Below are positions 1-5,360 of a stretch of 60,627 bases of DNA, one piece after another. Where the stretch lies: contig CAZHVT010000003.1 of NCBI GenBank assembly GCA_964536205.1, forward strand, positions 12,271 to 72,897, written 5' to 3'. This DNA is from an uncultured Gammaproteobacteria bacterium (GTDB taxonomy: Bacteria > Patescibacteriota > Patescibacteriia > Magasanikbacterales > GCA-002688135). The translations under genes were made by a program, and so were the position numbers. Numbering within the stretch: position 1 is the first letter of the stretch; the number at the start of each line of letters is the position of its first letter. The notes under the pieces are model-generated. The model did no database searches, was not told where the DNA came from, and worked only from the letters and a program-made list of their open reading frames with translations.

Positions 1-55
1 TGATGTTGATGTTTCCACATCAGATAAAAAGTCCCGAGCGAGCGTACTCGCTCGG
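1..55 (-). repeat. Island composite element R1: GC hairpin (CCGAGCGAGCGTACTCGCTCGG) + palindrome ATCTGATG-N12-CATCAGAT. Read on the minus strand it is hairpin, U-tract, then palindrome
   Basis: Identical 55-mer at 1344-1401; near-identical copy at 499-556. Confidence 0.8.
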
Positions 56-59
56 TCAT

Positions 60-464
60 TTACTCAAAGAACTTTAGTTGCGGATGTATTCGTTCTGGAT
101 CACGCTGAATTCTTTCTATCTCATTTTTCTTGTGTTCGATTTTTCGTCCAAGCGTTCCGATGATTCGCAAGTATGTTTGTGAAGGCGTTCCGGGTCCTAA
201 CTTTCGCCCTTCCTCTCTCATCTGCGTGGTCAGCTCCTTGACTTCTTTTTTCAATTGCGTGATTTTGATTTTTAATTCGTCATGCCATGGCTGAAATTCA
301 TTAACACATTCGATCCAGTGATTGAGATTTGGTTTTTCCCAACCGTCTTGTAAGCCTCTGCATTCAAATGCATCTGCACAACAGTATGGGCAACTAATGC
401 GCTTTTTCGTAATTGATGTGCTACTTTTTCTTTTGAGGAAAGGAATTTTTTTTGGGACTAACAT
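60..464 (-). CDS. Small Zn-finger (CxYCC..C..C..PWH) + coiled-coil protein, paralog family member 1
   Basis: ORF with Cys cluster CPYCCADAFEC...ECVNEFQPWH then heptad-like KKEVKELTTQMREE; RBS AGGGG upstream; paralogous to 4586-5032. Confidence 0.5.
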   Translation of the reverse strand: MLVPKKIPFLKRKSSTSITKKRISCPYCCADAFECRGLQDGWEKPNLNHWIECVNEFQPWHDELKIKITQLKKEVKELTTQMREEGRKLGPGTPSQTYLRIIGTLGRKIEHKKNEIERIQRDPERIHPQLKFFE

Positions 465-498
465 GCTTCACCCCTGATTGTAAAAGATCTCACTCACT

Positions 499-556
499 AT
501 CTGATGTTGATGTCTCCACATCAGATAACAAGTTCCGAGCGAGCATACCCGCTCGG
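499..556 (-). repeat. Island composite element R2 (subtype A), upstream of the 60-464 gene
   Basis: Same hairpin + palindrome architecture as R1/R3 with a few substitutions. Confidence 0.8.
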
Positions 557-572
557 ATTGCTGTGTTATTTT

Positions 573-1319
573 CTATTCGTTTTGTTTTATGAGTAGCGAC
601 AGTCTATGTGCGATCCACGTGAGCTGTTCTACTTTATTGTGCTCTTGGTTATATCTGCTCCACAGATATGGTTCACTGCGCGAAGATGCATAGATTTGTG
701 TTCTTGCATCATCTCGTTTCGTAGATGCCTCTTGTATGTGTTGTGTGATATCTGGTATTGCTGCCTGCGCTCGTTCGGATAAGGTTTGTTTTCTGCGTCT
801 GGTATTTTTTTGTGTGCAGAAGTGACAGATTTTCCAGAATGTTTCTGAAGTGTTATTTTTAAATTGTTGAGTATACAGTGTGTCGCGGCAGTATCGGCAC
901 GGAATATCAATGAAATCCTCATCCTCTGCGGCATTTTCTGGTAGTCGGTAGTGCGCTGGATTGGTTACTGGTGGGGGATTGTCTGTCCATCCATTCTCAC
1001 GCCATTCAGCTTGCAGCTTTTGTAGTTGTGATACTTGCACGCGGGCGCTTTTCAGTGATGCTGAGCACTCTCTTTGTCGCTGGTGAGAAGCAAATCTCAT
1101 GCTCGCGTGATTCGTGTTGAGAAAATCGTTGAGTCTGTTGATGGCTCTGGTGATGTGTGTGTGCGTGTGTAATCCGGGTTCTTTCCTCAACAGCGGACAG
1201 AAGTTTGACGTGTAGGAGTGACGTGTGATGTTGAAGTGTTCCCATATCCAATGTGGGATTTTGTCTTCCGAGAAGGTGATTTCACCTCGACATGCCGGAC
1301 AATGGAGTTCTTTCTTCAT
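573..1319 (-). CDS. Cys-rich hypothetical protein (CPAC..IPHW and CRYC..CHFC motifs), distant paralog of the Zn-finger family
   Basis: Start moved to MKKELHCPAC (1319) because the longer ORF runs into repeat R3. Confidence 0.45.
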   Translation of the reverse strand: MKKELHCPACRGEITFSEDKIPHWIWEHFNITRHSYTSNFCPLLRKEPGLHTHTHITRAINRLNDFLNTNHASMRFASHQRQRECSASLKSARVQVSQLQKLQAEWRENGWTDNPPPVTNPAHYRLPENAAEDEDFIDIPCRYCRDTLYTQQFKNNTSETFWKICHFCTQKNTRRRKQTLSERAQAAIPDITQHIQEASTKRDDARTQIYASSRSEPYLWSRYNQEHNKVEQLTWIAHRLSLLIKQNE

Positions 1320-1343
1320 GTTACTTCCTTGTAAGGACCAATT

Positions 1344-1401
1344 ATCTGATGTTGATGTTTCCACATCAGATAAAAAGTCCCGAGCGAGCGTACTCGCTCG
1401 G
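1344..1401 (-). repeat. Island composite element R3 (subtype A), between the MVP gene and the 573-1319 gene
   Basis: Identical to R1. Confidence 0.8.
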
Positions 1402-1407
1402 ATGATG

Positions 1408-3956: not shown

Positions 3957-4030
3957 TGTTTTGTAATGAACGTTTTATCTGACAATGAACTTCATTATCA
4001 GGTGAAACGCCCGAACCCGTAGGTTCGGGG
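3957..4030 (-). repeat. Island composite element R5 (subtype B)
   Basis: Near-identical to R4. Confidence 0.8.
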
Positions 4031-4035
4031 ATTTT

Positions 4036-4215
4036 TTATTGAGCGGCTTTGGCGATTGCCTTGTCTTGTTCTGCTTTGCGGTGGTCGAGCCACTTGTTGA
4101 GATAATCTCTGATCCACTCGATTTCGTGTCCTAGTTCGATTAGCTTCTCGAGGAGTTCTCTGATTTCTCGTCGATAGTGACTGCTGTACTCGTTATTGAT
4201 GAGTCTTTTTGCCAT
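4036..4215 (-). CDS. Small helical hypothetical protein (59 aa, MAKRLINNEY...)
   Basis: Internal ATG start chosen; downstream of R5-bounded unit. Confidence 0.35.
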   Translation of the reverse strand: MAKRLINNEYSSHYRREIRELLEKLIELGHEIEWIRDYLNKWLDHRKAEQDKAIAKAAQ

Positions 4216-4368
4216 CTTTTTTCCTTTGTGGTCTTTTGTTGTTACTCGAAAAAAAGCAATTGAGGGTGGATGTGTCTTTTTCTCACATGATCTTTGAGCC
4301 ATTCAGTTAGTTTTTTCATTAACTTCGCAGTCATCTATTTTTTATCCTTGTATGATCGTGACTAACGT

Positions 4369-4626
4369 TTATGGCATACCTCCTTGATATCTGACGTGAT
4401 TTTCTTCGACATTTCTGGGCAAGGTAATTCTGTATCCTTCATCACCTCGGTATGGGCTTCCGTCGGAAACTTTGGATGATGCGGGATGTTGTTTTTTATC
4501 CTCTTCACCATCCTTTTTTTTATCGAGATGTGCGTGCACACACGCAAGAATTTCTTTGTTAGAGCATCCTGCGTTTTTGATCAAGTCAATTGCACTGGTC
4601 AGAAAGCCTTTGTTTTTCTCGTTCAT
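4369..4626 (-). CDS. Hypothetical small protein (85 aa)
   Basis: ORF overlapping the 3' end of 4586-5032 by 41 nt. Confidence 0.3.
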   Translation of the reverse strand: MNEKNKGFLTSAIDLIKNAGCSNKEILACVHAHLDKKKDGEEDKKQHPASSKVSDGSPYRGDEGYRITLPRNVEENHVRYQGGMP

Positions 4627-5032
4627 CTTCTTCTCCCAATTCTTGTTTTTTTTGTGATCTATTTTTTACTTTTTCTCGTGCTTCTCTTTGTAGTCTATCC
4701 AAGTTGTTTTTAGCCTTTCGTTCTTGCGCTTCTAAACTTCCCGTTTCACGACGAAGCTCGTGTTTGATTGAGGATGGTTGAATAGGATCATCTATCAAGC
4801 CTTTTTTTCCAGATATGATGCTATTCAGCCAACTTAGTTTTTTGTTGAGTTTTTCGCATTCACGTACAAGTTTGATATGCCACGGTTCGTTTTCCGAATC
4901 GCACGTGATGTCCATAACTTTCCATCCACCATACATGCAGCGATAGAATAACGAGGTTTCGACTGATCTGTCATTGCAGTATTGGCATTTTTTTATGACC
5001 TTGCGTTGTTCTTGCTTGTTCCTGTTAGACAT
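4586..5032 (-). CDS. Small Zn-finger (CQYC..C..C..EPWH) + coiled-coil protein, paralog family member 2
   Basis: Start moved to MSNRNK (5032) to avoid repeat R6; CxYC-x-C-x-C-PWH spacing matches the 60-464 product; charged coiled-coil tail. Confidence 0.5.
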   Translation of the reverse strand: MSNRNKQEQRKVIKKCQYCNDRSVETSLFYRCMYGGWKVMDITCDSENEPWHIKLVRECEKLNKKLSWLNSIISGKKGLIDDPIQPSSIKHELRRETGSLEAQERKAKNNLDRLQREAREKVKNRSQKKQELGEEDEREKQRLSDQCN

Positions 5033-5055
5033 TGTGGCGTCCCTTATATTTGTGT

Positions 5056-5129
5056 TTTGAAATGAACATTTTATCTGACATTGATATTCAATATCAGGTG
5101 AAATGTCCCGAGTGAGCGTACTCACTCGG
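5056..5129 (-). repeat. Island composite element R6. Hybrid: subtype-B-like palindrome CTGACATTGATATTCAATATCAG with a subtype-A-like hairpin CCGAGTGAGCGTACTCACTCGG
   Basis: Direct read; shares AATGAACATTTTATCTGAC left flank with R5 and the GTCCCGAG..CTCGG hairpin with R1. Confidence 0.75.
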
Positions 5130-5135
5130 AATGTT

Positions 5136-5360
5136 CTATGGTAGGCGATCTGGAATTTTTGGCAGGTTCGCTAGTCTTAGATCGGCAGTTGCGTTGGGGT
5201 ATCGGATTGGCGAGATTTGTTCACCATGTTTGCGTCCGGCGAGCACATGTCTTTGCGCATGTTCTTGCTGAATTTGAGCCCCCGCAAGACCGTTTCCAGA
5301 TTCGAGAAGGTAGTTGAATAGAGTTCGTCTTTCGTTTTCAGTCCATCTGTCGTAACTCAT
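5136..5360 (-). CDS. Hypothetical small protein (74 aa)
   Basis: ORF only. Confidence 0.35.
   Translation of the reverse strand: MSYDRWTENERRTLFNYLLESGNGLAGAQIQQEHAQRHVLAGRKHGEQISPIRYPNATADLRLANLPKIPDRLP

Follow-up and report, generated by a model that had tools for sequence, protein, structure and literature searches.

Two-hairpin repeats as putative RNA spacers in a riboswitch-headed vault-gene island of an uncultivated bacterium

The 60,627-nucleotide stretch of contig CAZHVT010000003.1 analyzed here (the window) comes from an uncultivated bacterium, probably a member of the Patescibacteria (candidate phyla radiation, CPR). Its first 5.7 kb hold an island of minus-strand genes, one of which encodes a major-vault-protein (MVP)-like protein, and a short, near-identical element recurs between these genes. 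Together with an overlapping contig, L001, the island carries eight copies of the element. These are best read, with a probability of about one half, as two-hairpin RNA spacers between the cistrons of a single polycistronic operon headed by an S-adenosylmethionine (SAM) riboswitch. Each copy consists of a terminator-like GC hairpin (T) and an abutting clamp hairpin (H2). The operon would comprise about 15 genes and would run from a sigma-70 promoter and SAM-I riboswitch (5696 to 5440, minus strand) to a terminator near L001 position 13720, about 3.2 kb left of the window.

Architecture and copies of the element

Six copies lie in the window, all on the minus strand like the genes. An earlier note on this DNA had placed them at the same positions and described each as a composite of terminator-like hairpin, U-run and palindrome, which the sequence and its folds support. 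Three copies are of type A (1-55, truncated by the window edge, 499-556 and 1344-1401) and two of type B (3131-3204 and 3957-4030). The sixth, R6 (5056-5129), is a hybrid that joins a type-A-like GC hairpin to a type B palindrome. In type A the GC hairpin is CCGAGCGAG-UACG-CUCGCUCGG, followed by the palindrome AUCUGAUGU...ACAUCAGAU; in type B it is CCCGAAC...GUUCGGG, followed by CCUGAUAAUGA...UCAUUGUCAG. The extents of both hairpins in each copy are listed in Table 1.

The island continues leftwards, as the earlier note had expected. L001, which differs from the window at 2 of 10,464 overlapping bases, reaches about 10 kb further left and contains R1 in full and two additional copies (at 11647 and 12848), bringing the count to eight in 7.6 kb. 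Left of the last copy lie three small genes, an ordinary terminator and a canonical promoter (TTGACA-17-TATGAT). The 134-aa protein of the island is encoded on 11 public metagenome contigs, L001 among them. Variation within the population (2 differences in 10.46 kb) is too low for covariation to be read from single-nucleotide polymorphisms.

RNA folds computed along the direction of the genes show T and then H2 in every copy, with no unpaired base between them (folding z-scores of -5.7 to -8.1). T has a stem of 7-10 bp with 5-7 G-C pairs and lies 3-15 nt past the upstream stop codon, as is characteristic of an intrinsic terminator, a GC-rich stem-loop just downstream of a stop codon. H2 is built in three layers. 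Its inner stem of 10-12 bp is the palindrome of the earlier note, its middle layer is an internal loop or a C-A mismatch (CAC opposite AUA), and its outer stem joins the U-run that follows T (CGUUU or ACU..UUAU) to the 3' flank (AAACG or AUAA..GGU). The U-run of T doubles as terminator tail and as 5' basal strand of H2, so that H2 can form only on RNA that has been read through T.

Two details of the original description need revision. The palindrome with arms of 8-12 bp is present, but the helix that contains it extends further, to 16-19 bp with an interruption, and abuts the GC hairpin. The short U-tract is likewise present but good in type A and poor in type B. An intrinsic terminator would have some 7-9 nt of U-rich sequence directly behind its stem. 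The type A tract, (GAC)UUUUUAU with five U, passes a terminator scan, whereas CGUUUCAC of type B (UUUCAC) does not pass when read along the genes; the tract of R2 is UUGUU.

Conservation, covariation and distribution

MVP-like proteins of about 550 aa with 50-60% identity are common in uncultivated bacteria, several of the sources being named Candidatus Uhrbacteria. Five related islands whose MVP-like proteins are 56-60% identical (L029, L030, L031, L033 and L036) also contain the succession of T, a UUUUCAC-like linker, H2 and GAU. Variants of the linker in these relatives are UUUUCAC, UUUCUUAC and UUUUUCAG. Nine modules are found in L030, three in L029 (one of them an orphan), two in L031, and one each in L033 and L036. 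The L029 orphan (7070-7150) comprises T, a CCUUCUAC linker, H2 and a flank UAGGAGG that contains a Shine-Dalgarno (SD) sequence; a bidirectional terminator follows it in place of an open reading frame (ORF). The sequence of H2 in the relatives varies from copy to copy, and its pairing is retained.

The module is most telling in L029, L030 and L033. There, the outer stem of H2 joins the U-run to GGAG or GGGAGG, the SD sequence of the next gene, with the start codon no more than about 12 nt further on. An SD sequence and start codon placed directly after H2 leave no room for a promoter, so these arrays must be polycistronic.

Covariation was assessed in an alignment of 17 H2 elements from five lineages with a 19-pair structure. 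Standard pairs occupy 85% of cells, against 33-48% in controls in which the pairing partners were slid by 1-3 columns. Two-sided changes occur in 12 of the 19 pairs (37 cells), and none of 500 shuffles reached the observed pairing score. Sense folds hold 54 G-U pairs and antisense folds 23, an excess that comes partly from U-runs facing purine-rich SD sequences; of 20 elements, 14 fold more stably on the sense strand. A DNA palindrome would covary too; the asymmetric wobble pairs, and pairing kept without kept sequence, point to an RNA hairpin rather than a protein operator.

Single copies illustrate the same tendency. R2 departs from the type A consensus at four positions (UUUUU to UUGUU and AUAAUUGG to AUAGUGAG), and these substitutions weaken the U-tract and a -10-like hexamer yet convert two U-U mismatches to G-U pairs. 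The copy at L001 12848 has G-U where other copies have A-U. Unpaired or mismatched features (UUUUCAC, the C-A mismatch and GAU) are more conserved than the stems. That the architecture has persisted, covariation included, in lineages with MVP-like proteins of only 56-60% identity speaks for functional selection.

The element is confined to vault-gene islands as far as the searches reach. A degenerate pattern written for both subtypes has five matches in the 60.6 kb of the window, always in the island, and none in 100 shuffles. Neither the pattern nor an H2 covariance model finds a further copy in the other ~63 kb of contiguous genome, and in about 360 kb searched the covariance model matches solely inside vault-gene islands and always on the gene strand. 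Scans of sequence collections with TCGGN{5,6}TYNYCTGATNNNGAN{9,10}TCAGATA returned 5 single matches in genome_contigs, 2 in viral_contigs and 14 in metagenome_contigs, all from unrelated taxa, where about 4 in 596 Gb would be expected by chance on our own estimate. None of these matches fits the H2 covariance model (best 19 bits, against 29-55 bits for full-length real copies). The host genome is apparently absent from the scanned collections, and the restriction of the element therefore rests on the ~63 kb of flanking genome and on the related islands. Within positions 1-5900 of the window, nothing in Rfam other than the SAM family matches at E <= 1.

Confinement to one kind of island also bears on whether the element is selfish or recombinogenic DNA, akin to repetitive extragenic palindromic sequences and bacterial interspersed mosaic elements (REP/BIME), miniature inverted-repeat transposable elements (MITEs) or attC sites. 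Such DNA would have spread or been homogenised in the island, with a terminator function incidental at most. The copies are 90-100% identical beside paralogous genes that share only 24-26%, a disparity that suits homogenisation, as do the hybrid make-up of R6 and an orphan copy in L029 with no ORF downstream. Both differences between the window and L001 fall inside R3 (window 1344-1401, L001 9062-9122) and carry the R2 state, suggesting gene conversion between copies or an assembly artefact at the repeats. Mobility is another matter. Copies stay within one island and on the gene strand, the collections yield matches at chance level, and the architecture is conserved with covariation across lineages. 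The six contigs of the population are all collinear, which argues against cassette shuffling. No transposase, REP-associated tyrosine transposase (RAYT) or integrase was found among the island genes and the large window ORFs, the part of the window that the Pfam scan covered, or among the precomputed Pfam families of L001 genes. The copies are also without a GTAG head, an R''/R' attC core, terminal inverted repeats or target duplications. A selfish or recombinogenic origin is very unlikely on this balance.

Comparison with the individual families was no more favourable. REP/BIME sequences share with the element the form of short, near-identical imperfect palindromes downstream of genes that may terminate transcription or stabilise RNA. 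They are, however, dispersed genome-wide in both orientations, with a GTAG head and an associated RAYT, and this candidate was rejected on the count of eight uniformly oriented copies in 7.6 kb against none in the ~63 kb of genome around them, and on an alignment without the GTAG head. The earlier note had allowed for a common genome-wide REP repeat, which the element is not. Integron attC arrays resemble the island in having one or a few ORFs per unit, a single orientation, and structured repeats of 60-75 bp whose structure is kept above sequence. The island differs from them in that it has no integrase, attI or cassette variation among contigs and carries a riboswitch at its head. This candidate was rejected as well: RYYYAAC...GTTRRRY cores are absent from all copies, and the island ends at a riboswitch beside a ribonucleotide reductase (RNR) gene on one side and at ordinary genes on the other. 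An identification as MITEs was discarded with no recombinase, core sites or dispersal in evidence.

Transcription and RNA processing of the island

A sigma-70-type promoter and a SAM-I-like riboswitch stand at the head of the island (Table 1). The aptamer aligns to model positions 1-108 with the core AGGGA..UGGCCC..GCAACC..GGUGC, is followed by terminators, and is syntenic with confident members of the family. SAM riboswitches above the Rfam threshold head the related islands L029 (996-1116), L033 (7269-7394) and L035 (8636-8739), and L037 (1315-1441) has a sub-threshold match of 36.3 bits; in L035 and L037 the riboswitch directly precedes the vault-protein gene. Above-threshold riboswitches at the same place in relatives lend credibility to the weak match in the window. 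To judge from the sequence of the expression platform, a long-range inverted repeat (5455-5480 with 5511-5536) might serve as an antiterminator. SAM-I (RF00162) regulons likewise have an aptamer core and terminator at the operon head and may include a methylthioadenosine/S-adenosylhomocysteine (MTA/SAH) nucleosidase, as this operon does. Apart from the sub-threshold aptamer, the island departs from them in its content: an MVP-like gene and Cys-rich proteins of no assigned function match no known SAM regulon. To our knowledge, no link between SAM sensing and vault-protein homologues has been described.

The earlier note took each gene to be a transcription unit of its own, with a shared operator under one dimeric regulator. 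Spelled out, this view makes the element a terminator followed by a weak sigma-70 promoter, with the palindrome possibly the operator of a dimeric repressor and each gene or gene pair its own transcription unit. Promoter-like hexamers do occur in the elements (CTGATG-17-GATAAT, 8/12 matches; CTGATA-18-TAAAAT, 9/12; also CTGATA-18-TAAAAC), and the type A succession TTTTTAT-CTGATG-17-GATAAT parallels canonical terminator-plus-promoter modules of the relatives, such as GGGGATTTTTAT-TTGACA-17-TAGGAT in L033. R6 alone passes a promoter scan, which reports CTGATA-18-TAAAAT. Promoter-like sites with at least 9/12 matches are nevertheless no commoner than in shuffles, the -35 hexamer of the elements matches at only 3-4 of 6 positions, and the conserved final T is missing from the type B -10 (TAAAAC or GATAAA). 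Unlike the elements, confident promoters of the genome carry TTGAC(A/G) at -35, and the sole canonical promoter of the island is the one at its head. If the type A T hairpins act as the real terminators they resemble, distal genes might need promoters of their own; the homologous modules of L029, L030 and L033, in which the SD sequence follows directly, cannot contain one.

The operator half of this view fares no better. TrmB-family regulators are encoded divergently beside the MVP-like islands of L028 (7061-7810), L030 (2240-2992) and L036 (2637-3389), which would suit a regulated promoter; no counterpart was found in the window, nor any helix-turn-helix (HTH) or other regulator family among the proteins of this island. 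The inner arms differ between the window subtypes and among the nine copies of L030, and their pairing is kept by two-sided changes and G-U pairs, unlike a single operator. Independent transcription units with a shared operator are thus unlikely, though they remain the leading rival to the RNA reading, and a single regulator on the palindromes finds no candidate, although the promoter reading could be partly true beside the RNA reading for type A copies. Sigma-28- and sigma-54-like readings of the flanks were rejected by eye, as spacing and boxes did not fit.

Near-identical terminator-plus-promoter modules (a hairpin, TTTTTAT or TTTCTAA, TTGACA, 17 nt and a TAGGAT-like hexamer) coexist with T-H2 modules in islands of the relatives. 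They are located at 1-60 and 611-660 in L029, 10760-10810 in L033, and 11020-11070 in L030.

Under the preferred reading, that of RNA spacers within one operon, T would be a leaky intrinsic terminator that attenuates transcription stepwise and may also supply a stable 3' end to the upstream segment. Because T lies 3-15 nt past the stop codon, a terminating ribosome would hinder its folding. In Escherichia coli, terminating ribosomes almost fully suppress a terminator that lies a few base pairs beyond the stop codon (PMC4824070). That observation supports leaky termination at T. On RNA that is read through, T and H2 would form two abutting helices between cistrons. In the relatives, H2 pairs the next SD sequence with the U-run, so that translation would be low by default and would need opening of the clamp. 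In the window, where H2 lies 25-120 nt upstream of the start codon, it is more likely to act as a 5'-protective or processing helix (16-19 bp, RNase III-like) or as a site for a shared factor. The helix has the structure of an RNase III site, namely 16-19 pairs (about two helical turns) with a CAC/AUA internal loop or C-A mismatch, placed between cistrons.

Intercistronic stem-loops and partial terminators are known from operons such as Rhodobacter puf, E. coli malEFG (REP sequences) and pap. In those systems, as in this island, GC-rich hairpins stand between cistrons of one transcript, and there they attenuate read-through, stabilise the upstream segment and grade expression. The island differs in that a second conserved hairpin uses the U-run, and in that eight repeats with 90-100% identity occur in one kind of island. 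In phage T7 early genes (R1-R5) and the lambda N leader, RNase III processing sites separate cistrons on cleavage, leave protective hairpins and can free a ribosome-binding site. The T7 sites resemble H2 in that a helix of about 20 bp, broken by an internal loop, stands between consecutive genes on one polycistronic transcript. H2 has no sequence similarity to them and no phage context, every site is preceded by a terminator-like hairpin, and cleavage is a prediction.

A third comparison is with fourU-type and other SD-sequestering hairpins. The modules of L029, L030 and L033 resemble these in that a U/C run pairs with GGAG through A-U and G-U pairs and an inner stem clamps the structure. The window differs from them, since the 3' strand of H2 is AUAAAACG or AUAAUUGG rather than an SD sequence, which lies 25-120 nt further on. 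The U-run is also a terminator tail here, and the hairpins are intercistronic rather than part of a promoter-proximal leader. Intercistronic hairpins and partial terminators are, then, a known kind of device, and the regulatory principle is unsurprising. The clamp hairpin that reuses the terminator U-run, its repetition, and its tie to SAM-riboswitch-headed vault islands appear to be uncatalogued.

Most island genes have a short recurrent motif, (C)(A/U)UUACAA, between H2 and their ribosome-binding site (for example at 1322-1334, 3110-3125 and 5045-5060, minus strand). Several copies present it as the loop of a small hairpin whose stem joins CCU or CUC to the SD sequence.

Several observations count against RNA spacers in a single operon. 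Read-through of eight terminator-like hairpins is an assumption, and the type A T hairpins are comparable to bona fide terminators of the genome (GACUUUUUAUC, against a terminator at 10594-10613 followed by GACTTTTTTG). End-of-operon terminators in this genome also lie close to stop codons, so proximity alone is no proof of leakiness. With H2 off the SD sequence in the window, the clearest function of the module in the relatives cannot be transferred here. The antisense fold is slightly more stable in type B copies, and the window by itself therefore does not settle the functional strand. Common descent or gene conversion links the copies of a genome, which are therefore not independent observations. 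Weak promoter-like hexamers overlap H2 in AT-rich lineages, and the SAM aptamer, at 30.9 bits, stays below the Rfam gathering score of 44.4.

Island genes and the vault connection

The features of the island are collected in Table 1. Most of its proteins are orphans. The 551-aa protein matches the Pfam families MVP_shoulder (5.4e-28) and Vault_3 (2.8e-13). Two pairs of paralogues are present: the 134-aa and 148-aa Cys-rich proteins, which share 26% identity and, ahead of a coiled coil, a CxYC...PWH motif, and the 223-aa and 225-aa proteins (the latter at L001 10560-11237), with 24% identity. Seven elements downstream of the riboswitch, an MTA/SAH nucleosidase gene (PNP_UDP_1) lies at L001 11746-12504, some 1.3-2.0 kb beyond the left edge of the window, and scores 100.6 bits with TIGR01704 (cut-off 73.8).

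Table 1. Features of the vault-gene island in window coordinates.
Feature	Position	Strand	Remarks
Sigma-70-type promoter	5668-5696	-	TTGACA-17-TACTAT; 10/12 matches; island head
SAM-I riboswitch aptamer (RF00162-like, sub-threshold)	5532-5649	-	30.9 bits, E 5.5e-5, full model length
Riboswitch expression platform (putative)	5440-5519	-	Terminator-like hairpins 5519-5503 and 5458-5440, the latter followed by UUUUUU
74-aa ORF, first operon gene	5136-5360	-	No family match
R6 (hybrid)	5056-5129	-	T 5108-5129; H2 5064-5108
148-aa Cys-rich protein	4586-5032	-	Paralogue of 134-aa protein
85-aa ORF	4369-4626	-	No significant family
88-aa ORF	4036-4302	-	Or 58 aa from internal ATG; no family
R5 (type B)	3957-4030	-	T 4010-4029; H2 3968-4012
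223-aa protein	3210-3881	-	Paralogue of 225-aa protein left of window (24% identity)
R4 (type B)	3131-3204	-	T 3184-3202; H2 3142-3186
551-aa MVP-like protein	1408-3063	-	Vault repeats; MVP shoulder / SPFH domain
R3 (type A)	1335-1402	-	T 1380-1402; H2 1335-1380
248-aa Cys-rich protein	573-1319	-	No family
R2 (type A variant)	490-557	-	T 534-557; H2 490-535; four substitutions in U-run and 3' flank
134-aa Cys-rich protein	60-464	-	CxYC...PWH motif and coiled coil
R1 (type A)	1-55	-	Truncated by window edge; whole in L001 at 10408-10476

The wider window is bacterial chromosome, with genes for ribonucleotide reductase, LigA, DnaX, GatA, PilM and RpoD and three tRNAs. The earlier note had likened the modularity of the island to phage or defense cassettes, a comparison that the searches do not bear out: PHROGs and PADLOC gave only weak generic matches for the island proteins, with no phage or defense assignment, and viral contigs yielded no relative of the MVP-like protein. 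Large ORFs of 1166, 994 and 754 aa in the window have no Pfam match. The GC skew of the plus strand is very strong across the window, at about +0.3 where genes are on the plus strand and still positive where they are on the minus strand.

The neighbourhoods of the related loci have in common a nucleosidase family, radical-SAM genes, AAA_5/DUF7192 genes and small orphan genes. Nucleosidase homologues stand beside the MVP-like gene in most of them, often with a radical-SAM gene. BLASTP of the small island proteins against the ORFs of seven related loci recovered only MVP and nucleosidase homologues, so that no conserved partner protein can be named for the element. A 2019 preprint on bacterial MVP homologues does not treat genomic context (10.1101/872010).

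A second conserved RNA-like motif, absent from the window island, with a long variable stem and a loop (C/U)AGAUGCAUA(A/C)G that holds the palindrome AUGCAU, occurs in the related loci L029 (1387), L030 (7933), L031 (2475), L033 (8932) and L035 (8930 and 12889). The motif immediately precedes the MVP-like gene, in L035 an AAA_5 gene as well, and has no Rfam match at the gathering threshold. The window lacks the GATGCATA hairpin that relatives conserve ahead of their vault genes.

The company that the element keeps, and the small RNAs of eukaryotic vault particles to which the earlier note pointed, raise the question of a vault RNA counterpart. The elements might be excised as stable two-hairpin RNAs of about 70 nt, or might be recognised, or used for packaging, by an RNA-binding protein of the island, with the Cys-rich proteins and the MVP-like shell as candidates. 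Several lineages have the module in their vault-gene islands, it has not been seen elsewhere, and eight copies per transcript would provide a high local dose. The conservation of unpaired features (UUUUCAC, the C-A mismatch and GAU) above the stems is as expected for a protein recognition site; RNA binding by island proteins is purely hypothetical, and the Cys-rich proteins have no homologues in the module-bearing related islands. A separate small-RNA promoter is lacking, the terminator stands at the 5' rather than the 3' end of the unit, and the element is unlike any Rfam family. This explanation is about as improbable as selfish DNA.

A broader proposal makes T-H2 the recognition signal of vault islands. 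A factor encoded in the island would bind or cleave the module for co-regulation of the mRNA, or would load excised RNAs into MVP-like particles, giving a prokaryotic counterpart of vault RNA under SAM-riboswitch control. It is likewise very unlikely.

If RNA spacers punctuate a single operon, as preferred here, the element would be an uncatalogued cis-acting RNA module of long operons in uncultivated bacteria with reduced genomes, where little is known of regulation. Annotation would also call for caution, as repeated units of terminator and palindrome need not be per-gene promoters and operators. The module would offer several handles on the function of bacterial vault homologues. It would place them in SAM-riboswitch-headed operons with an MTA/SAH nucleosidase, to which the relatives add radical-SAM and MoxR-like AAA genes, and in islands with their own conserved RNA signals, where accessory genes turn over fast and the RNA modules are retained.

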